From an uncultured bacterium (lineage in GTDB: Bacteria; Eisenbacteria; RBG-16-71-46; CAIMUX01), in the NCBI GenBank assembly GCA_964631125.1, contig CAZVYN010000008.1, positions 3,746 to 67,745 on the forward strand: 64,000 nucleotides of DNA, given 5' to 3'. A program made the position numbers and the translations under genes. The notes beneath the pieces were generated by a model that searched no databases, had not been told where the DNA came from, and saw only the letters and a list, made by a program, of their open reading frames with translations. Of this stretch, positions 2,762 to 56,837 are shown one piece after another (position 1 is the stretch's first letter; each line of letters starts with the position of its first letter).

Positions 2762-5500
2762 ATGCGCGACGCTCTCCACTTCCTGAACATGAGAGATCGA
2801 TTCATGACGAAGCCCTCTTCGCGCGGCTGGTTCGCGACGGCCTGGCCCCTCTTGAACCTCTTGACCCTCTTGACCCTCTTGACCCTCTTGACCCCTTTGA
2901 CCTTCGCGGCGCTCTCGACGACGGCCGCCCTCGCGGTCGAACCGCGGGTCTACTACACGGCCCGCACCGACACGCCGCCCCACCTCGACGGCGCTCTCGA
3001 CGATTCGGTTTGGGACAACGTGGAGTGGGGCGGCGACTTCATCCAGCACGAGCCGGCCGAAGGTCAGCCCCCTTCCTGCCAGACTGCGTTCAAGATCCTC
3101 TACGACGACGACAATCTCTACCTCGCCTATCAGGCCTTCGACCCCGAGCCCCAGGCCATCTCGAGCATCTTGGGCCGACGCGACGACTTCCCCGGCGACT
3201 GGGTCGAGATCAACATCGACAGCTTCGACGACAACCGCACCGCGTTCTCCTTCACCTCGAGCGTCTCGGGAACGCAAGGAGACGAGTTCATCTCGGAGGA
3301 CGGCGACAACTGGGACGGCAACTGGGATCCGATCTGGGAGCAACAGACTCGCATCGACGACCAGGGGTGGACCGCGGAGGTCCGCATTCCGCTGGGACAG
3401 CTTCGCTACGCCGACAGCGCCGAACATGTCTGGGGCATCCAGGTGACGCGACGCATCTATCGACACGAAGAGCGCTCCGTCTGGCAGCCGGTCCCGAAGG
3501 ACGAAGAGGGGTGGGTCAGCAAGTTCGGCGAGTTGCGCGGCATCACCGGCATCAAGGCGCAGCGTCAGATCGAGCTGCTGCCGTACGCTGTCACGCAGGG
3601 AGAGAATTTCCCCAAGCAGGCGGGCAATCCGTTCGAGGACGGCAGCAAGGGTCAGGTCGCGTTCGGTCTGGACGGCAAGATCGGCGTCACCAGCGATCTG
3701 ACCGCCGACTTCACGATCAATCCCGACTTCGGGCAGGTCGAGGCCGATCCGTCACAGGTCAACCTGACGGCGTTCGAGACCTTCTTCGAGGAGAAGCGCC
3801 CGTTCTTCATCGAAGGGAAGAACATCTTCGAGTTCCGCGTCGCGCCCTCCATCGCGTTCGGCACGCACACGACCGATCGACTCTTCTACTCGCGTCGTCT
3901 CGGTCGCTCGCCGCACTATCGCGCCGACGGATTCGAGGAGGGGTACGTCGACCAACCTGGCGAGACGTCGATCGTCGGCGCGCTCAAGCTGACCGGGAAG
4001 ACGGCCAACGGCACATCGATCGGTGTGCTGGAGAGCGTGGCGGCGAGAGAGACGGCTGAGATCGATGTCGACGGCGCGAGGCGCAGAGTCGAAGTGGAGC
4101 CGTCGACCAACTACTTCGTAAGTCGCGTCCAACGAGATTTCCGCCAAGGCGACACGCGAATCGGCGGGCTCTTCACGGCGGTGAATCGGAAGATCGACAC
4201 GGACGAACTGAAGTTCGTGCACGAGGCGGCCTATACCGGCGGGCTGGATTTCTTCCACTACACGCCGGGGCGCAAGAACTACATCGCGGTCAATCTCCTG
4301 GCCAGCACGGTGCGGGGCGATGAGGCCGCCATCCTGGCGACGCAGACGGCGCCGGCGCGCTACTACCAACGCCCGGACAACAAGGGGCAGTCGGTCGACA
4401 GCACGCGGACATTGCTGGCGGGACATGGCGGTTCATTGCGGGTCGGAAATTCGCAGGGCAACCTGCGATTCGAGACCGGCGCGGCCTGGCGCTCCTCCGG
4501 CTTCGAACTGAACGACATCGGATACATGCGCAATGCCGACGAGATCAATCAGTTCTCCTGGGCCGGCTACGCCTTCCGCAATCCGTTCTCGATCTTTCGT
4601 CGGATGGATCTGAACCTGAACCAGTGGCTCGATTTCGAATTCGGCGGGGAGAATCTCTACCAGGCCCTGAACTTCAATACGAGCGCGTCGTTCCTCAACA
4701 ACTGGAGCTACAACGGCTCGGTCGCGCGTGAGAACGAGCGCATCTCGACGTATGAACTGCGCGGCGGGCCCTCGATCAAACTCCCTGGCGCGATCAGCGG
4801 CGACTTCGGATTCGACTCCGACGGGCGGCGGAAGCTCGCCTTCGGCGGCGGCGCATCGTTCAGTAGGTCCGACGATGAGGCGGGAAGCTCGAGCGGCTGG
4901 GGAATCGGCGCCTCTTATCGGCCGACGAACGCCATTCGCTTGCAGGTGGAGCCGGAGTACGAGCGGGGCCGGCCGGACATGCAGCACATCTCGCGGGTCG
5001 ACTCCGATGCCGGCTCGCGCTTCATCTACGGCAGCCTCGATCAGGAAACCTTTGCCCTGTCGTTCCGGGTCGACTACAGCGCGACGCCGGATCTCACGAT
5101 CCAGTACTACGGCGCGCCTTTCGTCTCGGCCGGCAAGTATGGCGACTTCAGGCGCATCACCGACCCGCGCGCCGAGAACTACGAAGATCGCTTCGACCGC
5201 TTCGGCGATCGCGTCGAGTTCGACGGGAAGAGCGGCCGGTACTCGGTCGACGAGGACGACGACGGCGTCGAGGACTACTCGTTCCGGAAGCCCGACTTCA
5301 ATGTGCGGGACTTCAATTCGAACCTGGTCGTTCGCTGGCAATACTCGCCGGGTTCGAGCATCTATCTGGTCTGGTCGCAGAACCGCGGCGGCTTCAACCC
5401 GGACGGCAGCTTCTCACTGAAGGACGATCTCGACGGACTCTTCGGCGTGCAGCCGCACGACGTGTTCTTGATCAAGGTGAACAGGTGGTTTGATCTTTAG
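2762..5500 (+). CDS. CBM9-like/DUF5916 domain protein (probable outer-membrane-associated hydrolase-like protein)
   Basis: N-terminal DOMON/CBM9-like region (DGALDDSVWDNVEWGGDFIQHEP...FKILYDDDNLYLAYQAFD...DWVEINIDSFDDNRTAFSF) followed by an approximately 650-aa C-terminal region. Long signal peptide containing an (LLT)n repeat. Alternative starts at 2789 and 2804. Confidence 0.6.
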   Translation: MRDALHFLNMRDRFMTKPSSRGWFATAWPLLNLLTLLTLLTLLTPLTFAALSTTAALAVEPRVYYTARTDTPPHLDGALDDSVWDNVEWGGDFIQHEPAEGQPPSCQTAFKILYDDDNLYLAYQAFDPEPQAISSILGRRDDFPGDWVEINIDSFDDNRTAFSFTSSVSGTQGDEFISEDGDNWDGNWDPIWEQQTRIDDQGWTAEVRIPLGQLRYADSAEHVWGIQVTRRIYRHEERSVWQPVPKDEEGWVSKFGELRGITGIKAQRQIELLPYAVTQGENFPKQAGNPFEDGSKGQVAFGLDGKIGVTSDLTADFTINPDFGQVEADPSQVNLTAFETFFEEKRPFFIEGKNIFEFRVAPSIAFGTHTTDRLFYSRRLGRSPHYRADGFEEGYVDQPGETSIVGALKLTGKTANGTSIGVLESVAARETAEIDVDGARRRVEVEPSTNYFVSRVQRDFRQGDTRIGGLFTAVNRKIDTDELKFVHEAAYTGGLDFFHYTPGRKNYIAVNLLASTVRGDEAAILATQTAPARYYQRPDNKGQSVDSTRTLLAGHGGSLRVGNSQGNLRFETGAAWRSSGFELNDIGYMRNADEINQFSWAGYAFRNPFSIFRRMDLNLNQWLDFEFGGENLYQALNFNTSASFLNNWSYNGSVARENERISTYELRGGPSIKLPGAISGDFGFDSDGRRKLAFGGGASFSRSDDEAGSSSGWGIGASYRPTNAIRLQVEPEYERGRPDMQHISRVDSDAGSRFIYGSLDQETFALSFRVDYSATPDLTIQYYGAPFVSAGKYGDFRRITDPRAENYEDRFDRFGDRVEFDGKSGRYSVDEDDDGVEDYSFRKPDFNVRDFNSNLVVRWQYSPGSSIYLVWSQNRGGFNPDGSFSLKDDLDGLFGVQPHDVFLIKVNRWFDL
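2849..2903. repeat. 9-bp tandem repeat (cctcttgac) x6 encoding (LLT)n in a signal peptide
   Basis: Direct repeats in the 5' end of the CBM9/DUF5916 gene. Confidence 0.8.
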
Positions 5501-5530
5501 TGCGTTGAGACCGCAGCGGTCTCAACGCAC
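5500..5530. terminator. perfect 15-bp inverted repeat with 1-nt spacer between convergent genes
   Basis: gtgcgttgagaccgc-a-gcggtctcaacgcac spans both stop codons. There is no clear U-tract. Confidence 0.4.
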
Positions 5531-7597
5531 CTCCCATCCCACCGAAACCCCGTCCTCTCCGTCCACCACTCCATGTGCGACATCCACCCGAACCTGCCCC
5601 TTCATCCCGACACTCCCCACTCGCACCCCCACGCCCCCATCCACCAACCACTCCGCGCGCCCGAACCCTCCCGTCTCGCACGGCCTCGCCGCATCCACGA
5701 ACAGCGCCCCCCCGATCCGCACCGGCCCCACGCTCCACAGCCACCGCTGGTGCTCGACGCTTCCATGCGCGAGCGCGCGGCCGAACGCGTCGCCGTCGAT
5801 CACTCGGCCGTCGTCCAAGAGCGGATGCGCACGCAGTAGCAGCGTGCGCCCCTGCCCCGTACCGGCGCCCGGCCAGAGCGCCAGTGGCGCGCGCGAACTA
5901 GCGGAAGCCACGCCGACACGGCCGCGCCACGCGCTCCACGCGTCGACTCCGGCCGACCGCCACACGGCAGAAAGGCCGACCGTGTAGAACGGCGCTTCGC
6001 CGTCGAGGTCCGTCCAGTGGGCGAGTTCGGCAGTCAGTGCGAGTCGATCCCGCGCGGCGCGCTGTTCGAACGTTCCGTCCACCGAAAGGGATGCGTCGCG
6101 GCCGTTCCACTTGTCGAGCGCGGCGCCGAAGCGATAGCGCAGGCTCGGAGTCGCCCAGTCGGAGAACGAGACCGAGCTTCGGCGGCGTTCCTCGGGGAGC
6201 GGCGAACGATCGGAGGAGCGCAACGAGTCGTCCGCGGAGGCCGCGCGAACGTACGACTGCTCTTCCCAGAATCCCGCGACGCGCCAGACGCCGGGTCTTC
6301 CGGCGACACCTGGCATGTCGAGCGAGACGGAAACGCGCGGGCGCTCTTCCCACCACCTCCCGCCCACGCTCCACCGTTCTCCATGGCCGATGAGACTGAC
6401 CACCGAGAGTTCGATCTCTCGATCGACCGCGGCCTCGACGCCGAGGCGGACGACATCCCAACGGCTCGCGAAGAGTCGCGGACGCTCGAGCACCGCAACG
6501 TCGATCTGGGCGACGTCGTCCGAGGTCGGCCGCACGGAGAGGCGAGCGGCGGAGAGCGCGGGTAACTCCTCCAGGCGACGTTGCGCAAGGCGGAAGTCGC
6601 GGCGCGTCAGCATCTCGCCCGTTGGGAGGTCGAGTTGATTCGTCACGGCGCGGTAGCGAATGGAGGAGAGACCGTCGACCTTGACGAGATCGGTGCGCGG
6701 GGCCGAGACCGCGTTCCAAGCATCGAGCGCGCCGCCGGTGTCGCCAGCCAGGTAACGGCTACCGGCCAAAAGTCTCCACGCTCGAGCATCGCGTCGATCG
6801 ACGGCGACCGCCTGCTCGGCCAGCTCGCTCGCGCCGATCCAGTCCTCGGAGAGAAAGCGCAGGCCGGCGAGTTCGCGCAGCGGAGCAGAGGATTCCGGGC
6901 AGAGAGCGGCGGCCGCGCGAAGTGTCGTTTCCGCGTCGACCCGCGCGCCGCGCTGAGCCTCGGCAATCCCACGGTCGACGATCGCGCCGCATCCGTCCAA
7001 CGAGTCGAAGGAGCGCGTCGCGGCGGAGTCGACGGGAGCGACCGCAGCGAGTGTCGAGTCGGTTCGCGCGCTACTTCCCGCAGGCGGCAACGCGGTCAGC
7101 ATCCACCGCCCACTGCTCGCCCAGGCGAGGTCGAACTCTGCTTCGCGCAGGACGCGATGGGGCCCGGAGTTCGGATCGTGAACGATGACGCCGCCGTTCG
7201 CCCAGGCAACGACCACGACATAGTGCAGGGCGCTCGAGCTCATGCCGATGGCGCTGCCGACGCCGAGCAGCGCGATGACCGGGCGGCCGCGATCGAGTTG
7301 AGTCTGCGCGGCGTCGGCGGATCCTGCCTCGACCAACGCTGTCCATCCGCGTGACTCGACGGCCGCGACGAGCGATGTGGTGGAGATCCCGGCGCCGTCG
7401 GGTTCGAGGAGGTCGGCGAAATCTTCGGCGTGAACGCCGTCCTCGCCCCAGAAGCGGAACACCATCGCGACGGCGGCGCCGCCGCAGAGAGCGGGGCTTT
7501 GCGGCACGTAGGGCGCGTCGAGAAGTCGGACCGCGCCGGCCACAGAGCAGAAGGCGGTCGCCGTCAGCAAGACGACAACCGCCACCCACGATCTCAT
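5522..7597 (-). CDS. secreted multidomain protein: peptidase C39-like (papain-fold) domain + TPR repeats + POTRA-like/beta-barrel C-terminal region
   Basis: Signal peptide. YVPQSPALCGGAAVAMVFRFWG with HYVVVVAW and HDPN forms a C39_2-type Cys/His/Asp triad. A TPR-like segment follows (AWRLLAGSRYLAGDTGGALDAW). The C-terminal 300 aa have alternating beta-strand character (IDVAVLERP..., GVGVRVGSVGMKGQVRVDVAHG). Confidence 0.55.
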   Translation of the reverse strand: MRSWVAVVVLLTATAFCSVAGAVRLLDAPYVPQSPALCGGAAVAMVFRFWGEDGVHAEDFADLLEPDGAGISTTSLVAAVESRGWTALVEAGSADAAQTQLDRGRPVIALLGVGSAIGMSSSALHYVVVVAWANGGVIVHDPNSGPHRVLREAEFDLAWASSGRWMLTALPPAGSSARTDSTLAAVAPVDSAATRSFDSLDGCGAIVDRGIAEAQRGARVDAETTLRAAAALCPESSAPLRELAGLRFLSEDWIGASELAEQAVAVDRRDARAWRLLAGSRYLAGDTGGALDAWNAVSAPRTDLVKVDGLSSIRYRAVTNQLDLPTGEMLTRRDFRLAQRRLEELPALSAARLSVRPTSDDVAQIDVAVLERPRLFASRWDVVRLGVEAAVDREIELSVVSLIGHGERWSVGGRWWEERPRVSVSLDMPGVAGRPGVWRVAGFWEEQSYVRAASADDSLRSSDRSPLPEERRRSSVSFSDWATPSLRYRFGAALDKWNGRDASLSVDGTFEQRAARDRLALTAELAHWTDLDGEAPFYTVGLSAVWRSAGVDAWSAWRGRVGVASASSRAPLALWPGAGTGQGRTLLLRAHPLLDDGRVIDGDAFGRALAHGSVEHQRWLWSVGPVRIGGALFVDAARPCETGGFGRAEWLVDGGVGVRVGSVGMKGQVRVDVAHGVVDGEDGVSVGWEVR

Positions 7598-12230: not shown

Positions 12231-13916
12231 TCAGCGCTGCGGCAGGAATTGAGTCGCGGCGGTGCTTTGTTCGGCGACGAGCCCCTCGGTCGAAGGACGT
12301 TCGGCCCACACTCTTGCGAAGTAGACGCCCGAGGCCGCTAGGTGGCCGTCGCCGAGACGTGCGTCCCAGAGAGCAAAGCGAGCGCCTTCGGCGCCGGAGT
12401 TCAAGCGGAGCAGGGCCACACGCGAACCTGCGGCGTTGTAGATCGCGACGCTAGCTTCGGGGATCCTCTCGGCGAGCGCGACATCGCGCAGATCCAGGCG
12501 CACCGCGCCTGTGGACGGATTCGGAAACGCCACTAGCCGTAGGCCGGTTGTGCGCGAGTTGTGCGGATCCTGCGGTCCGTGTGGTCCTTGTGGTCCGTCC
12601 GGTTCGACAGACGTCGCGGTGAGCTGCTCGGTCACCGTCGTCTTCGTACCGACCGGAACGCCGGGGACGATCTGCGTGATGCGCGCGCCGGCCGATCCGG
12701 GCCAAACGATCCTCAAGTCGACCGTCGTCCGACCCGGAAGTCCGAAGTGTCCGCCCATCTGGTTCTGAGGCGCGAAGCCCGACTGTGCGCAGATCTCGCG
12801 GACGCCCAGTCGGTACTCGGGCAGACCGGCGAAGCCCGCCTCGTACACTTCGACTCGCGCGCCGATGCCGTCGCGATTGGAGTAGCCGGCCCCCTGTGCG
12901 TGGAAACGCCCGGCCAGCTCGACCGTGAGGCCGTCGCTGGAGTCGGTGTCGTTGAGGAAGAGGTAGTTGTCGTTGGGGGAGTGTTCGTTGGCGGCGGCGA
13001 CGTCGAGGTCGCCATCGTTGTCGACATCGCCCCAAGAGAGCCCATCGGTGCTGCCGAGCCCGAACTCGGCAACCTCCGTGAACGAGCCGTCGCCGTTGTT
13101 CAGATACAGATAGTTCTGCTCGGCGGACGTGAAGTCGCCGTTCGCGGTTGCGCAGTCGAGGTCGCCGTCGTTGTCGGCGTCCCCCCATGAGATCGCATTC
13201 GTGTCGCGCGCTCCGAACGCGGGCGATGCGGTGAACGAGCCGTCGCCGTTGTTCGTGTACAACGCGCAGCCGTCGGCATTCCAGTTTCCGACCGCCATGT
13301 CCAAGTCGCCGTCGTTGTCACAGTCGGCCCAGGCGAGCGACGCGGTGTCTTTCATGCCGAATTGCGCCTGCTCCGTCCATGTCCCGTTGCCGTTGTTGAT
13401 GTAGAGATAGTTCTGTCGAGTCGCGCCGAGGATTCCGTTGCCGGTGGCCAGGTCGAGATCGCCGTCGCGGTCGTAGTCGGCCCAGGCCGCCGTAACGGTG
13501 CGACGCGCCACGGCGGAGAAGGGCGGCGCCGTCGTGTAGTTTCCGCCGCCGTCGTTGGTATGGAGCGCGTTCAGACCAGCGCCGCGACCCTCGGCCAGGT
13601 CGAGATCGCCGTCGTTGTCGCAATCCCCGAACACCATCGCGAAGCACTGAGAAGCGCCCCCCCATTGCTGGACGATGGTGAAGTCTCCCGCGCCGTCGTT
13701 GACGTAGAGGGACTTCGGCACGCCACCGTCGACCACTGCCGCATCGAGATCGCCGTCGCGGTCGACATCGCCCCACGAGATCGTGAGCGTGTTTCCGACT
13801 CCGAACTCTTGGCGTTGGATGAACCCGGCTTGGGCGACAGCGACGAATGTGGCGGTGCTCGCGACCGTCGCTACGGCCGCGAAGTTCACGGCTGTCGCTA
13901 CGGCCAACGCGAGCAT
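12231..13916 (-). CDS. FG-GAP/VCBS repeat protein with C-terminal T9SS-type sorting domain
   Basis: At least six repeats of the form GDxDxDGDLD / FG...G. C-terminal FPNPSTGAVRLDL...GVYFARV (Por_Secre_tail/FlgD-Ig-like). The true start is the internal ATG at 13916 (signal peptide MLALAVATAVNFAAVATVASTA). Confidence 0.7.
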   Translation of the reverse strand: MLALAVATAVNFAAVATVASTATFVAVAQAGFIQRQEFGVGNTLTISWGDVDRDGDLDAAVVDGGVPKSLYVNDGAGDFTIVQQWGGASQCFAMVFGDCDNDGDLDLAEGRGAGLNALHTNDGGGNYTTAPPFSAVARRTVTAAWADYDRDGDLDLATGNGILGATRQNYLYINNGNGTWTEQAQFGMKDTASLAWADCDNDGDLDMAVGNWNADGCALYTNNGDGSFTASPAFGARDTNAISWGDADNDGDLDCATANGDFTSAEQNYLYLNNGDGSFTEVAEFGLGSTDGLSWGDVDNDGDLDVAAANEHSPNDNYLFLNDTDSSDGLTVELAGRFHAQGAGYSNRDGIGARVEVYEAGFAGLPEYRLGVREICAQSGFAPQNQMGGHFGLPGRTTVDLRIVWPGSAGARITQIVPGVPVGTKTTVTEQLTATSVEPDGPQGPHGPQDPHNSRTTGLRLVAFPNPSTGAVRLDLRDVALAERIPEASVAIYNAAGSRVALLRLNSGAEGARFALWDARLGDGHLAASGVYFARVWAERPSTEGLVAEQSTAATQFLPQR

Positions 13917-14267
13917 CTTCGGCGGCGCCGCCTGCGCCTGCGCCTGCGCTCGCGCCTGTGCTCGCGCCTTCGTCTCGCCCGTCGCCCTCGCCGCGCTGGC
14001 TCGAGCTTCCTGGAATCGTTGCGTCACCCGCTCCTCCTTCGCGCCGCGTCGGCGCGTGTCCGTCCCGTGACTGCGCGAGAGGCCCCGAGTCTCTCGCCGA
14101 CGGGACAATCGACCCGCGGAGACGAACCGCGGCAAAGGAAGGGATGAGCGGACCTCGAGCAGGGACGAAGTGGCGCGTGGCGCGGGCGAACGGCGTGGGC
14201 GTGGGCGCGCGAGTGAAGGATTCGGCGTGAGAACCGGCCGGAGTCGACGTCCGCTCGAAGGCGAAGA

Positions 14268-14320
14268 TTGTGAAAAATGGTGCAACTATTGCCGGCAACA
14301 GTTGCACCATTTTTCACAAG
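14268..14320. terminator. 53-bp AT-rich near-perfect palindrome, copy 1 (probable bidirectional intrinsic terminator)
   Basis: ttgtgAAAAAtGGTGCAACTATTGCCGGCAACAGTTGCACCaTTTTTcacaag. The arms pair 25 of 26 positions. The one mismatch becomes a G-U pair on the minus-strand RNA. A GC-rich stem is flanked by A5 and T5. It lies 99 bp downstream of the DinB_2 gene stop, after a gcgtcccc x3 repeat. It is identical to the copy at 53393..53445. Confidence 0.6.
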
Positions 14321-14376
14321 CGCTGTCTCGGAAAGCGGGCCCGACCGGCGCTCACGAATCGCGCCCGCGCACGTCC

Positions 14377-14400
14377 GCGTCCCCGCGTCCCCGCGTCCCC
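14377..14400. repeat. 8-bp tandem repeat (gcgtcccc) x3
   Basis: Direct repeats lying between the DinB_2 stop and palindrome copy 1. Confidence 0.8.
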
Positions 14401-14418
14401 GCGGCCCTTCCCTTCCGC

Positions 14419-14943
14419 CTACCGCGACAGCACCGGCAAGTACTCCCTCCACGGCCCGACGTCATTCGCGTAGCGCTTCGACATGACGCGGGCGATCTGT
14501 GCGATGTGGCCGAGGTCGTGAGCGACCCAGGTGGCGAGGAGGTTCCGCAACGTCACGGGGCCGAGCGAGGGATGTAGCCCGGGCGACGAGAGCGACTCGG
14601 ACGAGATCGAGGTCGTGTCCAAGGTCTCCAGATTCGCGGCGCGCTGGCGGGCGAACTCATCGAGGAGCTGATCGAGCGACTTCCCCTCGCTCTCGCGAAA
14701 CTGCGCGAACCGATCGAACGGGTCGAATGCGCGCGCGGGGCCGTGTTCGAGCAAGATCCTCAGACGTGAGATCCAGTCGGTGCGTTCGCCGTGGATCAGG
14801 TGGCCGACCACGTCGTACGGACTCCAGGTCTCCGGTCCCTCGTTGTCGTTGATCCACTCGGCCGGGAGCCCGCGCAGCCAACTGTCCAAGACGACCGGTG
14901 TACGCGCGAGCACCGCGCGCGCCGATGCCAGTTCGAAGTTCAT
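14419..14943 (-). CDS. DinB_2 superfamily protein (DinB/YfiT-like metal-dependent four-helix bundle)
   Basis: WSPYDVVGHLIHGE...WVAHDLGHIAQI gives a His triad pattern. Start at MNFELASA. Confidence 0.6.
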   Translation of the reverse strand: MNFELASARAVLARTPVVLDSWLRGLPAEWINDNEGPETWSPYDVVGHLIHGERTDWISRLRILLEHGPARAFDPFDRFAQFRESEGKSLDQLLDEFARQRAANLETLDTTSISSESLSSPGLHPSLGPVTLRNLLATWVAHDLGHIAQIARVMSKRYANDVGPWREYLPVLSR

Positions 14944-15016
14944 GGCGGGACCTCCTTCTGCCCAATGGTGAGCTGCCTGGTAGCCATCATTCGTCATCAT
15001 TCGTCATCATTCGCCA

Positions 15017-15883
15017 TCATTCGCGGGGCGCAGAACCGCCGCGTTCGCGCCCCGCGAGCAGCGCGCGCAACTGCGAGGAATGGGTGCGTCCCGAAGTCAG
15101 CTCCGTGCCATCGAGCAGGACGACGATATACGCGCCGTGGAACCACGGGCGAAGCTCGCGCACCCGATCGAGGTTCACCACGATCGACCGATGGATGCGC
15201 AAGAACCGCGAGGAATCGAGGCGTGCTTCGAGATCCTTGAGCGGTTCGCGGTGCAGGTGCTTCGTCGCGCCAACGTGGAGCGCGACGTAGTTGCCTTCGG
15301 CCTCGATCCAATCGATCTCATCGTCGCGGACGAAGAAGGCGCGATCACCGTCATGCACGACGAGCCGCCGCGACGAAGGGTTCGCAGGAGCGACTGCCGA
15401 AATCGAAGCAAAGTGCTGCAGCGTTCGCATCAAGCGATCGACCGACGCCGTGAGGTCGGTGGCGATTTCCGGCTCCCGCGTCCGCTCCCGCGTCCGCTCC
15501 CGCAGCAGCCGCCGCGCCTCCACCCGCTCCTTCGCTCGCCGCAGCGCGCGTGCAAAGCGGTCGACGTCGAACGGCTTCAGCAAGTAGTCGATCGCCTGGA
15601 GATCGAACGCCTCCACTGCGTGTTGGTCGAACGCGGTGACGAAGACAACGACCGGCGTCTCGGTCGGCGACAGCGCGCGCAGGAGATCGAGGCCGGAGGG
15701 TCCCGGCATCTGGATGTCCAAGAAGACCAGCTCTGGGTGGAGACGACGGATCATCTCGAGCGCCTGTGCGCCGTCGGATGCTTCGCCCACGCACGCGACC
15801 TCTGCGTCGGTCGCGAGCAGCGCACGCAGCCGCGCACGCGCGAGCGGCTCGTCGTCCACCAGTAAGGTGGAGATCGCCGTCAT
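15017..15883 (-). CDS. LytTR family response regulator (REC + LytTR DNA-binding domain)
   Basis: N-terminal REC domain (LLVDDEPLARARLRALL...VFLDIQMP). C-terminal LytTR domain (RLVVHDGDRAFFVRDDEIDWIEAEGNYVALH). Its start overlaps the upstream kinase stop by 4 nt. Confidence 0.85.
   Translation of the reverse strand: MTAISTLLVDDEPLARARLRALLATDAEVACVGEASDGAQALEMIRRLHPELVFLDIQMPGPSGLDLLRALSPTETPVVVFVTAFDQHAVEAFDLQAIDYLLKPFDVDRFARALRRAKERVEARRLLRERTRERTREPEIATDLTASVDRLMRTLQHFASISAVAPANPSSRRLVVHDGDRAFFVRDDEIDWIEAEGNYVALHVGATKHLHREPLKDLEARLDSSRFLRIHRSIVVNLDRVRELRPWFHGAYIVVLLDGTELTSGRTHSSQLRALLAGRERGGSAPRE
15466..15505. repeat. 12-bp tandem repeat x2.6 inside the response regulator gene (encodes RERTRERTRE)
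   Basis: ctcccgcgtccg repeats. Confidence 0.6.
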
Positions 15884-17400: not shown

Positions 17401-17427
17401 GGAGAGCAAGGAGAGCAGGGAGAGCAA
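17401..17427. repeat. 9-bp tandem repeat (ggagagcaa/g) x3, i.e. three tandem SD-like motifs immediately 5' of the ATG at 17430
   Basis: ggagagcaaggagagcagggagagcaacgATG. Confidence 0.7.
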
Positions 17428-23333: not shown

Positions 23334-23509
23334 AGCAACGAAGCAACAAGCGCCCGTGTGGCGCGAGATCTACAACAAGCAGGATGGAAGAACGCGAGGG
23401 CCCTCGTCGGGGGATGGGCGCAGTGGCAAGAGGCGGAGTGGCCGACCGAACTCGAGTCGGACGGTTAGAACTCCGCCCGCCCCGCGCTCCGCTGGTACTC
23501 TCGCCCCCC

Positions 23510-25534: not shown

Positions 25535-25633
25535 ATGGCCAAGAGTCTCGAGACCAAGAAAGAAACGAAGAAGAAGCCGACCAAGAGCCTCAAGGAGAAG
25601 AGGGCTGACAAGAAGGCGAAGAAGGACAAGTAG
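25535..25633 (+). CDS. small Lys-rich peptide (32 aa), not in the ORF track
   Basis: MAKSLETKKETKKKPTKSLKEKRADKKAKKDK. An AAGGAG SD lies 9 nt upstream. A 9-bp stem hairpin (gatccgcgc-agca-gcgcggatc) starts 2 nt after the stop. Locally lower GC. Confidence 0.45.
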   Translation: MAKSLETKKETKKKPTKSLKEKRADKKAKKDK

Positions 25634-25766
25634 TCGATCCGCGCAGCAGCGCGGATCGATCAGTTCGAGACCCCGGAGGGCAAGAACCCTGGGGTCTCGC
25701 TGTTACCGCCCCTCAACCTGCGAAGCGAATCACCTCGTCACTCTCTTCCACCGAAGGACCTTCGCC

Positions 25767-38703: not shown

Positions 38704-38759
38704 CCGCTACGGCGCTATGCCGCTACGGCGCTATGCCGCTACGGCGCTATGCCGCTATG
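38704..38759. repeat. 16-bp tandem repeat (ccgctacggcgctatg) x3.5
   Basis: Intergenic, 70 bp downstream of the ComM stop and upstream of the OmpA-TSP3 gene. Adjacent to a lower-GC stretch at 38560-38700. Confidence 0.85.
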
Positions 38760-38830
38760 CCGCGGTGCGCGCCAAGCGAGCCGTGACCCTGCCGTCGTTC
38801 GTCCATCGCTCCTCCGCCGCTCCGCACTCC

Positions 38831-45734: not shown

Positions 45735-45780
45735 CCGTGGCGCCACTCTCGTCCGGTGCGCTCGCTGACTACATTCGCGG

Positions 45781-45828
45781 CCTCACTCGCAACCTCATTC
45801 GCCGCCTCATTCGCCGCCTCATTCGGCC
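45781..45828. repeat. 12-bp tandem repeat (cctcattcgccg) x4
   Basis: Intergenic between the XRE-cupin gene and the convergent lipoprotein gene. Confidence 0.8.
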
Positions 45829-51415: not shown

Positions 51416-52654
51416 ATGCCCCGCATTTCTGATTCGAAGATCGGCCGGACGGCCGGACAGTTGGCCGAACGGTCGGCCGGCCCGCTGGCGGGAGTGCTGG
51501 CCGGCTTGGCGTTGCTCGGCCTAGTGAATGGGACGGCGCCCGCCCAAGTGGTCGAGAGCTGGACCCTCACGATCGACAGCTCTACGACCCAACCCGTGGC
51601 GACGGGGCTCTTCGCCTTCGACGCGGCGGACGACGTGATCGTCCTGGCGGAGGGCGCCCTCCGCGCGGGCCAAGAGAGCGAGCCGTACGACCAGGGTTGG
51701 TTCGGGCCGGCCGGCCACACTCGGCTGTCGCGGTTCGGCCAGCCGGTCGGCAACGGAATGCCGTTCGGAGCGCTCGTCGGCGGATTCGGCTCCGATGTGA
51801 CGCAGTTCGAACAACTGGGACGCCTCGGCGCCTTCGCGGTCGCGCTGACGGAAGTCGGAGAAGAGTTCCACGTCGCGCTCAACATGTCCGACTCCGACCT
51901 CGCCGCACTCGAAGGCTCGGTCACGATCACGTTGATCTACGTTCCGGCGGGGAGTGCGGATGTTTCGGAGATCACGATCACTGCGGGCAGTCCCGACGAG
52001 ATCCCGACTGGGTTGACGGCAGATTCCGGAGACAAGTTCGTCGTGCTCCCATACGCCGCGGTGCGCGCGAATGCGGTCGGCGCCAATCCCTACAGCAACG
52101 GCTGGTTCTCCTCGGCGGGTCGGATTCAATTGACGCGCGCAGGACAGCCGGCCGTGACCGGTCCGTACGGCGCGCTCTACGGCAGATACGCCGGAGGATC
52201 CAATTTCTTCATCGGTGACGGCGGGTGTTGGATCACGCAGCCGGCGGATCTCGGACAGGAGCTGATGTTGCTCACGAACATGTCGGCGGCCGATCGCGCG
52301 ACGCTCGTCGGTCGCTACGTCGCCAACGTGATTCGCGTTCCGGCGCCCGCGCCCGCGGCCGTGCCGGGACCTGACGCGATCGAGTACGGCCTGTCCTCCT
52401 CGCCGAATCCGATGAACGGCGCGGCGACGATCCGCTACCAGCTTCCGCAGGCGGGACTCGCGCGTGTGCGGATCGCGGATGCGACTGGACGTTGGGTGCG
52501 GACTTTGACCGACGGAACCGCTCCGGCCGGCGCGCACGCGATTCAGTGGGACGGCGCCGACGATCGGGGTGAGTCGCTGCCCGGGGGAATGTACTTCTTC
52601 CAACTCAGCACCGATGCCGGTTCGCGCGCGGGGCGGATCGTGATCAGTCGCTAG
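51416..52654 (+). CDS. secreted protein with an internally duplicated domain and C-terminal T9SS-type sorting domain
   Basis: Two copies of a domain of about 110 aa (NGWFGPAGHTRLSRFGQPVG / NGWFSSAGRIQLTRAGQPAV). C-terminal SPNPMNGAATIRYQLP...GMYFFQL. Confidence 0.45.
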   Translation: MPRISDSKIGRTAGQLAERSAGPLAGVLAGLALLGLVNGTAPAQVVESWTLTIDSSTTQPVATGLFAFDAADDVIVLAEGALRAGQESEPYDQGWFGPAGHTRLSRFGQPVGNGMPFGALVGGFGSDVTQFEQLGRLGAFAVALTEVGEEFHVALNMSDSDLAALEGSVTITLIYVPAGSADVSEITITAGSPDEIPTGLTADSGDKFVVLPYAAVRANAVGANPYSNGWFSSAGRIQLTRAGQPAVTGPYGALYGRYAGGSNFFIGDGGCWITQPADLGQELMLLTNMSAADRATLVGRYVANVIRVPAPAPAAVPGPDAIEYGLSSSPNPMNGAATIRYQLPQAGLARVRIADATGRWVRTLTDGTAPAGAHAIQWDGADDRGESLPGGMYFFQLSTDAGSRAGRIVISR

Positions 52655-53306
52655 CGCGCGAGAGTTCTCGCCAGAGCCAGCTCTTCGCGAACCGCCAGTC
52701 ACGGACGACGGTTCGCGTCGCCACTCCCAGAATCTCGGCCGTGTCGTCGAACGTCATTCCGCCGAAGTAGATCAGTTCGACGACACGGAGTTTGCGGACG
52801 TCTTCGAGGCCGAGACGTTCGAGGGCGCGGTCGAGATCGAGGGCGTCGATCGGCGTAGCCGAGTTGTTGTCCCAGAGACTCTCGTGCAGGCTGACGCGTT
52901 GTTGTTCACCGCCTCGCCTCTGCGCTCGATGCGCGCGCGCGTAGTCGATCAGAACCCGCCGCATGGTCGTCGCGGCCAGTGCCAACAGGTGACCGCGGCC
53001 CTGCACCTGCGTGTGCGTCTCTCTCGCAAGCCGCAGGTAGGCCTCGTTGGCGAGTGCGGTGGGCCGGAGGGTGTGTTCGGCGCGCTCCCTCCGCATCAAG
53101 TGGCTCGCGAGCCCGCGGAACTCGTCGTAGACCAACGGCAAGAGATCATCGAGCGTGCTCGGCTCGCCTTCGGTCACCTGTTCGAGGACATCCTGCGCGA
53201 AGCGCTCGATGGCGGAGGCTTCTTCGGGGGTGGCGCTGGGCGTGGCGCTGGGTGCGGCGCTGGGTGCGGCGTCTGGCGCGCGATCAGGACGTTCGAACTC
53301 TTTCAT
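52644..53306 (-). CDS. ECF-type RNA polymerase sigma factor (Sigma70_ECF family, kinase-associated type)
   Basis: Region 2 (DLLPLVYDEFRGLASHLM) and region 4 (GMTFDDTAEILGVATRTVVRDWRFAKSWL). Start at MKEFERPD. The N-terminal extension of the longer ORF is a palindrome artefact. Confidence 0.75.
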   Translation of the reverse strand: MKEFERPDRAPDAAPSAAPSATPSATPEEASAIERFAQDVLEQVTEGEPSTLDDLLPLVYDEFRGLASHLMRRERAEHTLRPTALANEAYLRLARETHTQVQGRGHLLALAATTMRRVLIDYARAHRAQRRGGEQQRVSLHESLWDNNSATPIDALDLDRALERLGLEDVRKLRVVELIYFGGMTFDDTAEILGVATRTVVRDWRFAKSWLWRELSRASD

Positions 53307-53392
53307 GCCGTTTCTCCCGATGAGGCGTCTTGCGAGTTCGACCGAGGGTACACGCGAAGGCGTTTCGCGGGTGGCATCGAGGGAGTTGGGGC

Positions 53393-53445
53393 TTGTGAAA
53401 AATGGTGCAACTATTGCCGGCAACAGTTGCACCATTTTTCACAAG
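53393..53445. terminator. 53-bp AT-rich near-perfect palindrome, copy 2 (identical to 14268..14320)
   Basis: Same 53 bp including the single arm mismatch. It lies 101 bp downstream of the STK2 stop and 87 bp upstream of the ECF sigma ATG. Confidence 0.6.
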
Positions 53446-53466
53446 CCCGGGCGATCCCCCGAGGCG

Positions 53467-53553
53467 TCCGCGCGTCTCATGCGCGTCTCATGCGTCTCAT
53501 GCGTCTCATGCGTCCATGCGTCCATGCGTCCATGCGTCCATGCGTCTCATGCG
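53467..53553. repeat. compound tandem repeat: (gcgtctcat)x4 then (gcgtccat)x4 then gcgtctcat
   Basis: Lies between the STK2 stop and palindrome copy 2. It shares the gcgtcc core with the copy-1 repeats. Confidence 0.85.
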
Positions 53554-56500
53554 CGAGTCGCGCTCGCCCACTTCACCATCTCCCCCAAGCTCCGCGCAGC
53601 GCCGCGTTCATACGCGGCGGTGAACGGCTCGTCGCCGATTCTCTCGCGAATCGAGAGGCGCGCGGCGTCGAACATCCTTCGTTGGCCGTCGAGCAGCGGC
53701 AGGCGCTCCTGCTCGTAGGCGCGATCGAGTCCACCGAGCGTTTCGGCGAATGACGCCGGATCTCCCATCGCGTCGGCCAGACGACCGAGCGCGAGCAAAA
53801 CCGAGCAGACGCCCGACGAATTGCCGAGCTTGGAGCGGATGCGCAGCGACTGGACCAGATGTGTGCGCGCCTCGTCGAAGCGGCCGAGCGCCGTGCAGGT
53901 GTCGCCGAGATTGTGCAGGCAGAGCGCCATGCCGGGCGCATCCCGCGCTTCGCGGTGCACTTCGAGGGCTTCTTGGATCGGCGCGAGCGCTTCCTGCGGA
54001 CGTTGCAGGATCTCCAGTGCGCGGCCGATGCTGAGCAGCGCTTTGGACGCGCCCAAACGGTCGCCCAACTCGCGGCTGAGGCGGAGTTGTTCCTCGAAGA
54101 GCGCCTTGGCCTCGGCGTGCTGACCGCGGACGCCGTGAATCGCGGCCATGTTGCCCACGCTGGTGGCGACTCCCGCGCGGTCCCCCACTTGCTCGAAGAG
54201 ATCGCGGGCCTCGCGCCACTGCGCTTCCGCTAGATCGATCTCGAGGGCGAACCAGCTGACGGCGCCGGCGTCGCGCAGCCCGCGCGCGAGAGCCGCGGGA
54301 TCGCCGAGTTCTCTCGCCATCGCAATCATCCGGAGCGAGGCGTCGTCGGCGGCGGGGCGATCCTCGAGCATCGCCAAGGTGCGAGCGAGTCCTCCCCACA
54401 CGGCGATGCGGTCTTTCGGATCGACCGCCGCTCCGTCCAACGGCAACTCGAGCACGCGGCGGAGGTAGGCCACGCCCTCTCGCCAATACCCGGCCATGCT
54501 CCAGTAGCGGCTGAGTCCAGCGGCCAGGGTGTAGACGCGCCGGGCCCACCGTCGGCGCAGGCAGATCTCCAACGCGTCGACCAGATTGGTGTGCTCGACG
54601 TCCATGCGCGCCAGCCATTCCAAACTCAGCCCCTGCTCGCTGGCCTTCGGCGAGAGCATCTGTGTGAGTTGATCGACGTAGCGACCCTCGGTTCGCTCCG
54701 GTTCCTCGTCGCGTCGCGCGAGACGATCGCGGGCGAAGCGTTGGATCGTCTCCAGGAAGCGGTATCGAGCCTGACGACCGCCGTCGAGATTCTCCACCTC
54801 GACGAGTGAGCGCTCGACCAGACGCGCGAGTAGATCGCACTGCTGCCAGGTCGACAGGCCGTCGCGCGCGCAGACCGCCTCTGCGAGTTCGAGTGTCCAT
54901 CCGCCGCGAAACACCGACAGACGCTCGAAGAGCAGTCGCTCCGAGCGGCCGAGGAGTCGATAGCTCCAACTCACCACGCCGGCAAGCGAGCGGTGGCGCT
55001 GCGGTCCGCGTCGCTCGGGCGTCCCGAGCGAAAGCGGGTTGGCGCGGAGTCGCGCGAGGATCTCTTCGGCCGGCAGGGCGCGCGAGTGCCCGGCGGCGAT
55101 CTCGATCGCGAGCGGCAGCCCATCCGCACGGCGGCAGATCTCGGCGACGGTGGCGAGCTGTTCGTCGCGCAGTTGGAAAGACGGTTGCCGCGACCGTGCT
55201 CGCGCGACAAACAGTCGGACCGCCTCGCAGGAGCGCAGCGCGACGGGGTCGTCGGTTTCGGCCGGGAGTCCGAGCGGCGGTAGCACGTAGACCTGCTCAT
55301 CCGGCGAACCGAGCGGCGCGCGGCTTGTCGCGAGCACCGAGACGCCGCGGCAGTTCTCCAGCAAGTCCGCGATCCATCCACCGGCTGCCTCCAGCAGATG
55401 TTCGCAGTTGTCGACCACGAGGAGCGCTTGCCGGTCGCCGAGCAAGCGTGTGACCGCCTGTGCGCGCGAATCGCCCGAAGCGCCTCCCTGGACATCGCGA
55501 ACGCCGAGGGCGCGCGCCGCCAGGCCGCCGATCTGCTCTCCACTCTGTTCCCCACTCTCGATCGTCGAGAGGTCGACGAACCAGATTCCGTCGGGAAAGC
55601 GCGCCGCGGAGCGGGCGGCGGCTTCCAAGGCGAGGCGCGTCTTGCCGGCGCCTCCTGGGCCGGTCAGCGTCAGAAGTCGATGGCCGCCGAGGAAAGTCTC
55701 CACCTCCGCGCGTTCGCGTTCGCGTCCGATGAACTCGGAGAGACGGCGCGGGAGATTGCCGCGCGCGGCGGAGGAGTCGACCGACTCGACCGCGAAGAGC
55801 GCTCGGGCTCGCAAACGCAGGAGCTCCTCGTCCAAGACGCGCCGCGCGTCGGCCGCGGAGGGTCTCGTCTCCGCGTCGAGCGAGATGAGTCCGTGCAGTA
55901 GGTCCACGATCGGACGCGCCAGCGTGTCGGGCAGCGCGCTCCAGTCGATGTGCGCGCCGGCTTCGGGGCCCGAGGCGTCGACCGGCGAACGGTGATCGAG
56001 GGCGGCGCGCCGGGCGAGACACTCGTAGAGCACACAGCCGAACGACCAGAGGTCGGACGCCTCAGTGAGGGCGTCGCCGCGCGCCTGTTCGGGGCTCATG
56101 TAGCCGACGGTGCCGCACGGGCTCCCCGACGCGCCGGGATTGGTCTCGGGAGTGAACGCGAGACCGAAGTCCAAGACCTTCACCCATCCGTCGGGCGTCA
56201 CGCGGATGTTCTGCGGCTTCAGATCGCGGTGCACGACGCCTTGGGCGTGCGCAGCCTCGAGCGCGGCGGCGATCTGCCGTCCGAACTCGAGCGACGCGGC
56301 CAGCGGGACTTCCTCCGAGCGCAGCCTCTCGGCCAGTGTGGCGCCCGGCACATACTCCATCGTCAAGAACGAAGCGGTCTCGGAGGCGCCGTCGATGCGT
56401 TGCTGACTCTCGATCTCGACCAGCTCCTCGAACGAATAGACCTGCGCGACATTGGGCTGGCTCACCGCCGCCAGCATTCGCGCCTCGTCTCGCAGACGAG

Positions 56501-56837
56501 CGCGCCGAGCCCGGCTGCCCGCCGCCTCCGACGTGAGGGTCTTCAGCGCGACGTTGCGACCGAGTTGCGGATCCTCCGCGAGATAGACCACTCCCATCGC
56601 CCCGCGCCCGATCTCCGCCAGGACAAGATACCGGCCGACCCGGTCGGCCGGTCGCAGCCTTCCGCGTGACGCCGGCCGCAAAAAAGCCTCCGACGCCTCG
56701 AACGCCGCCGCGAGCGACGAGACCTCCTCGCGCAACGCGTCGTCCCCCGCGCAAACCTCGTCGAGGTAACGAGATCGCTCGTCCATCGAAAGGTCGATCA
56801 GGCGATCGAGGATCTCTTCGGTCCGGGGTGAGAACAC
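53547..56837 (-). CDS. Ser/Thr protein kinase with AAA/NB-ARC-like ATPase and TPR repeats (STAND-type)
   Basis: Kinase motifs (GRGAMGVVYLA, VALKTL, HRDLKPQNIRV, DFGLA). P-loop GPGGAGKTRLA. TPR C-terminus. Confidence 0.85.
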   Translation of the reverse strand: MFSPRTEEILDRLIDLSMDERSRYLDEVCAGDDALREEVSSLAAAFEASEAFLRPASRGRLRPADRVGRYLVLAEIGRGAMGVVYLAEDPQLGRNVALKTLTSEAAGSRARRARLRDEARMLAAVSQPNVAQVYSFEELVEIESQQRIDGASETASFLTMEYVPGATLAERLRSEEVPLAASLEFGRQIAAALEAAHAQGVVHRDLKPQNIRVTPDGWVKVLDFGLAFTPETNPGASGSPCGTVGYMSPEQARGDALTEASDLWSFGCVLYECLARRAALDHRSPVDASGPEAGAHIDWSALPDTLARPIVDLLHGLISLDAETRPSAADARRVLDEELLRLRARALFAVESVDSSAARGNLPRRLSEFIGRERERAEVETFLGGHRLLTLTGPGGAGKTRLALEAAARSAARFPDGIWFVDLSTIESGEQSGEQIGGLAARALGVRDVQGGASGDSRAQAVTRLLGDRQALLVVDNCEHLLEAAGGWIADLLENCRGVSVLATSRAPLGSPDEQVYVLPPLGLPAETDDPVALRSCEAVRLFVARARSRQPSFQLRDEQLATVAEICRRADGLPLAIEIAAGHSRALPAEEILARLRANPLSLGTPERRGPQRHRSLAGVVSWSYRLLGRSERLLFERLSVFRGGWTLELAEAVCARDGLSTWQQCDLLARLVERSLVEVENLDGGRQARYRFLETIQRFARDRLARRDEEPERTEGRYVDQLTQMLSPKASEQGLSLEWLARMDVEHTNLVDALEICLRRRWARRVYTLAAGLSRYWSMAGYWREGVAYLRRVLELPLDGAAVDPKDRIAVWGGLARTLAMLEDRPAADDASLRMIAMARELGDPAALARGLRDAGAVSWFALEIDLAEAQWREARDLFEQVGDRAGVATSVGNMAAIHGVRGQHAEAKALFEEQLRLSRELGDRLGASKALLSIGRALEILQRPQEALAPIQEALEVHREARDAPGMALCLHNLGDTCTALGRFDEARTHLVQSLRIRSKLGNSSGVCSVLLALGRLADAMGDPASFAETLGGLDRAYEQERLPLLDGQRRMFDAARLSIRERIGDEPFTAAYERGAARSLGEMVKWASATRA

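Follow-up and report, generated by a model that had tools for sequence, protein, structure and literature searches.

The window analysed here is a 64,000-nt stretch of DNA from an uncultured bacterium of about 66% GC, and the element of interest is a palindrome located between a Ser/Thr protein kinase gene and an extracytoplasmic function (ECF) sigma factor gene, both on the minus strand. The kinase gene (53547-56837, 1096 aa) was assigned by domain search and public gene calls and displays Pkinase, AAA and TPR domains. The sigma factor gene (52644-53306, 220 aa) is of the PF07638/TIGR02999 type by domain search. Pairs of a kinase and an ECF sigma factor are thought to work through phosphorylation of the sigma factor. 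In the direction of transcription, the spacer between the two genes holds a compound tandem array (array 2, 53470-53550), a 23-nt linker (53447-53469), the palindrome (copy 2, family core 53391-53446) and an 84-nt leader on the minus strand (53307-53390) that leads to the sigma ATG and carries a GGGAG ribosome-binding site; array and palindrome are not assigned to a strand. An earlier note on this DNA had placed a palindrome and an array in this spacer. Both are real, but the spacer is 240 nt in length and not 241 nt as given there. The closest named homologue of the sigma factor comes from a Candidatus Eisenbacteria metagenome-assembled genome (63% identity). Because of this match, and because the domain repertoire is rich in FlgD_ig domains, the host is probably a member of Candidatus Eisenbacteria.

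Copy 2 is a near-perfect palindrome of 56 bp. Its full pairing extends over 53389-53418 and 53419-53448, i.e., two abutting arms of 30 nt that are 97% complementary and have no spacer between them. The core reads GCTTGTGAAAAATGGTGCAACTATTGCC to the left of the centre and GGCAACAGTTGCACCATTTTTCACAAGC to the right, and it scores 84.6 bits with the covariance model of the family. The 56-bp family consensus consists of GCTTGTGAAAAATGGTGCAACTrTTGCC followed directly by GGCAAyAGTTGCACCATTTTTCACAAGC. Folding gives a hairpin of about -54 kcal/mol on either strand, with z values of -8.7 to -9.9 relative to shuffled sequences. The sole imperfection is asymmetric: it forms an A.C mismatch on the plus strand and a G.U pair on the minus strand, the strand of both flanking genes.

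A 15-nt half-site, AAAAATGGTGCAACT, occurs four times in the window, where 0.18 occurrences are expected and none of 100 shuffles reaches four. These occurrences form exactly two palindromes, centred at about 14293 and 53418, and with up to three mismatches allowed the same two palindromes are still the only ones in the 64 kb. The earlier description of the element as a second copy is thus correct. Copy 1 lies at 14266-14321, again without an assigned strand, with arms at 14268-14293 and 14294-14319. The core from TTGTG to CACAA is identical in the two copies (14268-14319 in copy 1), and the 56-nt sequences differ at one end position. Copy 1 also shares the A.C/G.U asymmetry of copy 2 and its orientation. 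It is found between a DinB_2 family gene on its upstream side (14419-14943, minus strand, 174 aa by public gene call) and an FG-GAP/FlgD_ig protein gene on its downstream side (12231-14027, minus strand). The order is the DinB_2 stop at 14419, a second tandem array (array 1, 14375-14407, no strand), about 50 nt, the palindrome, 238 nt, and the start of the next gene. Array 1 consists of CCGCGTCC repeated 4.1 times, which on the minus strand is the 8-mer GGGGACGC repeated three to four times. The small MVQLLPA(T/I)VAPFFT open reading frames (ORFs) that the earlier note saw as forced by the palindrome are present in a naive ORF list and are not used by the public gene calls on the contig. A 50-aa composite query with this peptide found no protein with three common 5-mers in a collection of 5.8 billion.

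A pattern scan of metagenomes revealed 25 further instances at 16 distinct loci with unrelated flanks (loci outside of the window are given L numbers below). Together with the two window loci, this gives at least 18 distinct, nearly identical copies of the family. This count is a lower bound, as the window loci themselves escaped the scan although they are present in several of the scanned assemblies. All of the family-bearing contigs have 64-68% GC and come from the same microbial-mat metagenomes (JGI Ga01631xx and ENA ORBV01), and every one of the at least 18 loci is intergenic by our own and by public gene calls. Four diverged copies were detected with nhmmer and the covariance model (L030:1466-1522, L031:735-787, L028:14175-14229 and L039:7289-7340), in addition to a half copy at a contig start in a relative. 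Old-type copies are found 50-700 nt from young copies in four loci, which suggests either insertion near existing copies or local duplication. A young subfamily with the apex TGTTGCCGGCAACA appears to overlay an older one with the apex CGCCCCGGGGCG. It can be stated with high confidence that the palindrome belongs to a dispersed repeat family, and since its copies occur in tandem, convergent and divergent intergenic regions, the locus-specific regulatory layout that had been proposed for the kinase-sigma spacer is not supported. Confidence in a locus-specific design is low.

Outside of these metagenomes the family is not seen. Representative genomes in GTDB (one per species) contain only chance palindromes, in low-GC taxa and with different spacings. 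No matches were present in viral contigs (0) or in plasmids. Rfam gave nothing at the gathering threshold, and at E values up to 10 only generic hairpin and miRNA-precursor noise. A full-text literature search with Eisenbacteria and palindromic as terms gave one paper, which by title and abstract is about a soil metagenome co-assembly, and no prior description of the family.

Alignment of 22 copies shows that 94% of pair cells are canonical, and 11 of the 26 pairs have changed on both sides. None of 500 shuffles reaches the observed values, and registers slid along the alignment are 35-52% paired. One position varies freely, the R of ACT[R]TTGCC and the Y of GGCAA[Y]AGT, and all four states (A..C, G..T, G..C and A..T) are seen there. 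The entire apex can also be replaced by other self-complementary sequence, CGTCGCGCGACG in L030 and CGCCCCGGGGC in L031b, L039b and L058. The outer TGTGAAA/TTTCACA and inner GCAACT/AGTTGC segments, on the other hand, are conserved in sequence even in old copies. Thus the compensatory changes in the stem and the conserved outer and inner motifs together indicate an element under both structural and sequence constraint.

These data bear on the possibility that the palindrome is a DNA site for a dimeric protein (a global regulator, a nucleoid or an insulator protein), either as an operator or as a cruciform-dependent switch. Conservation of the two motifs goes beyond what pairing needs, many copies are placed upstream of a start codon, at a distance of 37-240 nt, two copies precede ECF sigma genes, and covariation in a palindrome cannot by itself distinguish DNA symmetry from RNA pairing. 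The outer half-sites TTGTGAA/TTCACAA resemble those of Rex and of CRP-family regulators. However the half-sites are 42 bp apart and not 4-6 bp, and sites of regulators are normally degenerate rather than identical over 56 bp. The copy in L036 is situated between two convergent stop codons, 33 and 29 nt away, where there is nothing to regulate. The apex tolerates complete exchange provided that self-complementarity is retained (L030, L031b, L058), and the sigma-54-like pattern TGG-N9-TTGC in each arm is at chance level. A protein-binding DNA site is therefore considered very unlikely.

Two other DNA-level candidates were rejected. A sigma-54 promoter (TGGCAC-N5-TTGCW) has three mismatches in each arm; sites with two or fewer mismatches number 12 in the window against 13.9 expected, and the TTGC is missing from variant and old copies. 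An integron attC site (GCAAC...GTTGC) has core sites that do not match RYYYAAC/GTTRRRY, and the two window copies lie 39 kb apart among ordinary genes.

Comparison with relatives points to the origin of the spacer. In relatives with a 74-80% identical sigma factor, the order of kinase followed by sigma is kept. A 4-nt overlap of the two genes is seen in L059 and in the P0002 contig, and a gap of 17-18 nt in L060 and L062-64; in L061 a 104-nt spacer is found that has no palindrome. The overlap or near-abutment in relatives indicates a single ancestral operon, and, as judged from these gene orders, the 240-nt spacer is a derived insertion into it. Compared with its relatives the kinase lacks about 10-15 aa at the C-terminus, and its end coincides with the beginning of array 2. 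A homologue search with the C-terminus gave one match, of 54%, because TPR words swamped the candidates.

A closer relative (L058), with a 91% identical sigma factor and about 86-88% nucleotide identity in a syntenic contig, has an old-apex variant palindrome, AGTTGCACCTTCTTTCACAAG, upstream of sigma; the L058 contig starts at the centre of this palindrome. Thus the element was present here before the two lineages split. The window copy displays the young consensus at an old site, which implies gene conversion between copies or re-insertion. More generally, the family may have spread, or been homogenised, by transposition or gene conversion.

The role of the palindrome may be at the RNA level. 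In a kinase transcript, it would form a 26-28-bp hairpin followed by U5 that could function as a bidirectional terminator, an attenuator or a hairpin that protects the 3′ end. A perfect stem of 26-28 bp is long enough for RNase III, and the stem is a plausible substrate of this enzyme, in which case the transcript would be processed instead of terminated. Under either role the sigma factor would be expressed in part independently of the kinase. The predicted function as a terminator, attenuator or processing site in transcribed copies is put forward tentatively, with close to an even chance at best.

Several properties are consistent with an RNA-level role. A5 and T5 tracts are found on either side of the inner stem, and of only four TTTTT runs in the 64 kb two belong to the palindromes. 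The hairpins have energies of -41 to -54 kcal/mol, and U5 follows an inner stem of 16 bp; however, this tract is itself paired with the A tract, and pairing goes on past it. Canonical terminator-like sites are not enriched in this DNA (35 found against about 30 expected from shuffled sequence, over 60 kb). Genes were called with a codon-usage model trained on long ORFs, which reproduces the public calls. The 13 non-redundant palindrome-bearing intergenic regions defined by these calls comprise seven tandem, three convergent and three divergent ones, and in 10 of the 13 a gene reads into the element. In L036 two convergent stop codons are only 33 and 29 nt away from the element. Asymmetric copies in tandem contexts have the G.U pair and not the A.C mismatch on the transcribed strand in six of seven cases, the two window copies being among the six, and all three convergent loci have the fully symmetric G..C form. 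This orientation is the only observation that separates RNA pairing from DNA symmetry, and it is a hint. The hairpin after the kinase, previously interpreted as a terminator, is a reasonable terminator candidate by its A5/T5 bracket and the rarity of TTTTT. The wider interpretation is supported in part: a terminating or processing hairpin is plausible, but the hairpin is a genome-wide repeat within an ancestral operon and the array is separate from it.

The old copy that follows rplS (L031/L051) resembles a classical terminator of the A5-stem-T6 type. It should also be noted that the 3′ ends of the sigma gene and of a convergent FlgD_ig-domain gene (51416-52654) share 11 nt (52644-52654). Gaps of 12-43 nt separate several further convergent pairs in the window, too little space for terminators.

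Our overall interpretation, which we regard as somewhat probable, is that of a lineage-specific extragenic palindromic repeat with a REPIN-like form and a TRIT-like likely use. A number of observations weigh against it. A terminator consensus scanner does not flag the element. The distribution over intergenic types is not clearly different from that of background regions of at least 100 nt (36 tandem, 8 convergent and 24 divergent). The three divergent cases were checked with Pfam (ECF sigma/HDAC, HNH/CstA and hydrolase/unknown), and because no gene reads into these copies, a terminator role cannot account for all members of the family. The signal from the G.U orientation is weak: the one-sided p is about 0.06, and Fisher's method gives about 0.04 if the convergent loci are added. 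Of the 240-nt insertion the element makes up 56 bp, and the remaining 184 nt are only partly explained. The placement of all family loci in one genome is presumed from GC content, sample origin and codon usage. Mobility, for its part, is suggested solely by the dispersal and by the relatives without the spacer: inspection of 17 junction pairs gave no target-site duplication and no conserved target word or tetranucleotide, and no transposase or within-species empty site was found.

[quoted passage not shown] Near-identical copies with unrelated flanks are what such an element would leave behind, as are the coexisting young and old subfamilies with their 50-700 nt proximity in four loci, the relatives that lack the spacer, and the presence in all three intergenic types at roughly background proportions, verified divergent regions included. 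In addition, a palindrome-carrying composite unit of 188 nt occurs with 89% identity at two unrelated loci (L033:11505-11692 and L034:5474-5661). The palindrome is central in this unit, which also has a side hairpin and an outer CCGTCCG/CGGACGG stem, and tandem arrays abut its ends. Shared flanks are limited to L027/L034 and to L033/L038, which share the 188-nt unit; the window copies share no flanks with other loci, except for a similarity of the array unit of copy 1 to L027. An ORF with a weak match to the integrase-core domain rve is found 311 nt from one copy. The junctions, however, have none of the expected duplications or target tetranucleotides, and there is no GTAG tag. No RAYT turned up among the contigs seen, which cover no complete genome. 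The A5/T5 tracts and the hairpin are kept in old copies by compensatory changes, which suggests selection beyond transposition, and the G.U orientation bias likewise counts against this possibility. A purely selfish element is thus thought to be rather unlikely, although it is the strongest of the alternatives. A MITE with target duplications was rejected, as the inverted ends are trivial in a palindrome and no direct repeat is present at the 17 junction pairs.

Array 2 was delimited by direct reading and with the program TRF, which reports 53472-53553 with a period of 8-9, 9.3 copies and a score of 118. By direct reading the units on the plus strand are 11, 11, 9, 9, 8, 8, 8, 8 and 9 nt. On the minus strand the order is ATGAGACGC, four of ATGGACGC, two of ATGAGACGC and two of ATGAGACGCGC, after which a degenerate GGACGCC unit (53461-53469) forms part of the linker to the palindrome. 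The array is thus a compound one with 9-mers and 8-mers, as had been described, and contains 11-mers as well. The TGA stop codon of the kinase (53547-53549) lies inside the unit that comes first in the direction of transcription. The array thus provides the kinase stop codon and is located in the 3′ untranslated region (UTR) of the kinase. Only the loss of this first unit would be of consequence: the kinase would gain about 35 residues and end at a TGA within the palindrome.

The array extends from the kinase stop to 23 nt short of the hairpin and is not located between promoter elements. Since it sits between stop codon and hairpin, the number of units alters the kinase 3′ UTR and not the spacing of a sigma promoter, and the suggestion that repeat number tunes promoter spacing fails because array 2 is outside of any candidate sigma promoter. 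A promoter scan of the sigma leader (53307-53390) found no sigma-70-like promoter. Variation in copy number, which had also been suggested, is absent from array 2 and present in array 1. Array 2 is identical in five versions (the window and L052-L055) that have 0-2 single-nucleotide polymorphisms over 20.6 kb. In array 1, three units are counted in the window, in L068 and in L070 (JGI assembly and Logan contig) and two in L067 (ENA assembly; L067:4980), and this single 8-nt unit is the sole difference in 7.9 kb between otherwise identical assemblies, so that slippage as a general idea stands. The best reading of array 2 is an expansion of 8-11-nt units by replication slippage, separate from the palindromic element.

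The earlier note had proposed a module particular to this locus, in which a terminator, a dedicated sigma promoter within 84-87 nt and array-tuned spacing work together. Such a module finds some support in the recurrence of the same layout (stop, short array, about 50 nt, palindrome, next gene) at both window copies on the same strand, and in the polymorphism of array 1. Among intergenic regions of at least 150 nt, arrays are also somewhat commoner where a palindrome is present (seven of 12 regions, compared with 12 of 47 without a palindrome), and GACGC-based arrays are found only beside palindromes (four of about 10 arrays there and none of about 20 elsewhere), although this association is a post hoc observation in GC-rich low-complexity sequence. 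However the palindrome is a genome-wide repeat, six of the 13 palindrome-bearing regions have no array at all, and many regions that lack a palindrome do have arrays. Array 2 does not vary among the five assemblies and lies upstream of the hairpin, outside of a sigma promoter that would act after termination, and no promoter-like site was found by the scan. We consider this module highly improbable. A further possibility is a TRIT-like terminator that requires a sequence-specific factor and also propagates, through transposition or gene conversion among copies, rewiring operons and splitting the kinase-sigma pair into two units under separate control, with the GGACGC-type arrays as a functional companion in the 3′ UTR (e.g., a platform for protein binding) and not slippage debris. 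This is quite unlikely.

Short tandem arrays are widespread in the intergenic DNA of this lineage. Of 114 non-redundant intergenic regions, 25 hold arrays with a period of 5-20 nt. The density of such arrays in the window is about fivefold higher between genes (about 0.9 per kb) than in coding DNA (0.17 per kb), where their periods are multiples of three. The unit GGAGAGCAA at 17401-17427 carries the ribosome-binding site directly ahead of the ATG at 17430, and is present three times in the window but once in the relative L065 (at about 235-250), with about 86% nucleotide identity. This array and those at 734-777, 14985-15023, 38704-38763 and 45772-45825 have periods of 7-16 nt. Examples from outside of the window are L051:3338-3640 and L034:5396-5916, and some regions hold three or four different arrays side by side. 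Arrays are also found in coding sequence. At 2847-2902 the 9-mer CCCTCTTGA is repeated six times in frame in the signal-peptide-like N-terminus of the gene at 2762-5500 and encodes LLNLLTLLTLLTLLTPLT. At 53232-53276 the 12-mer GGCGCTGGGTGC is repeated 3.7 times in the N-terminus of the sigma factor and encodes an Ala/Pro/Ser repeat before the conserved sigma domains.

In comparison with known systems, the element is a member of neither the REPINs nor the TRITs; it is closest to REPINs in form and to TRITs in likely use. REPINs are REP doublets that fold into hairpins and are moved by RAYT transposases; REPs and REPINs are known from Pseudomonas and Enterobacteria. Like REPs (repetitive extragenic palindromes) and REPINs, it is short, dispersed and strictly extragenic and forms a long, almost perfect hairpin from two inverted arms; the apex or spacer varies yet stays self-complementary, and subfamilies of different age coexist. 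Some REPINs of P. fluorescens are flanked by conserved A and T runs, which have been read as co-option for attenuation (PMC3337134). Intercistronic REPs in E. coli operons lead to differential mRNA stability (Higgins, Newbury and colleagues, cited in PMC12306157). Unlike in REPINs, the arms of 28 nt are not themselves imperfect REP palindromes and they abut without a spacer. The main subfamily has no GTAG/CGTC head, and CGTC is found only in the variant apex of L030 and L028b. The element is 56 bp, compared with 89 bp for the illustrated GI REPIN (PMC3337134), and occurs about once per 30 kb in the window and not in hundreds per genome. The host is also of a different phylum and uncultured.

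TRITs are 147 conserved palindromic bidirectional terminators of M. tuberculosis that are restricted to Mycobacterium (Gardner et al. 2011, PMC3152330), and the conservation of their sequence led the authors to suggest an additional recognising factor (PMC3152330). The present family is similarly a lineage-restricted, multi-copy palindromic hairpin with conserved sequence and structure, bidirectional by symmetry, in a high-GC genome poor in canonical terminators. It differs in position, as TRITs cluster tightly at about -8 from the stop codon and family copies are 29-316 nt downstream of it, with others in divergent regions. The family is not similar to TRITs in sequence and has no Rfam match, the host is not an actinobacterium, and the family element carries explicit A5/T5 tracts. 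A perfect palindrome unrelated in sequence to the family is found at 5500-5530, with 15-nt arms (GTGCGTTGAGACCGC-a-GCGGTCTCAACGCAC) over both stop codons of a convergent pair (2762-5500 on the plus strand and 5522-7585 on the minus strand). It lacks a T tract, and in its position at the ends of the coding regions it is like a TRIT.

A likeness also exists to DNA uptake sequences, in that many loci have, downstream of a gene, a hairpin formed by an inverted pair of identical short sequences. In Neisseria and the Pasteurellaceae such pairs reportedly serve as terminators, as Kingsford et al. described in 2007. The difference is that uptake sequences are abundant singly, even inside genes, whereas the family half-site never occurs singly in the 64 kb. 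Array 1, with short tandem units and a unit-number polymorphism in an otherwise clonal population, is similar to the phase-variable simple-sequence contingency loci of Neisseria and Haemophilus. Array 2 is unlike these, as it follows a stop codon, is neither in frame nor between promoter hexamers, and shows no variation.

Three observations concern other parts of the window. The relative L065 carries an extra BON-domain gene (L065:6305-7639), preceded by a GC-rich hairpin, which the window genome lacks at the corresponding place (about 23485-23490). A lysine-rich ORF of 32 codons (MAKSLETKKETKKKPTKSLKEKRADKKAKKDK) at 25535-25633 is conserved in L065. It is followed at 25667-25698 by a GC-rich hairpin, GAGACCCCGGAGG...CCCTGGGGTCTC.

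The family has practical consequences for work on this lineage. De Bruijn assemblies break precisely at the centre of the element, which fragments the contigs; the Logan contigs L056:1, L057:1, L058:1 and L070:3837 begin or end within a few nt of a palindrome centre. The element also seeds spurious ATG-initiated ORFs on both strands, and it could be used as a sequence tag for binning contigs of the lineage. If the interpretation given here is correct, the neighbouring arrays would be hypervariable markers in an otherwise near-clonal population.

Nothing in these results overturns current understanding, and the family adds one more example to a kind of element that is already known. If true, the interpretation would put on record a REP/TRIT-like family of palindromic repeats for an uncultured candidate phylum of high GC, one for which the window shows no canonical terminators, and would provide a concrete case of a repeat that landed inside a conserved, ancestrally overlapping kinase-ECF sigma pair.

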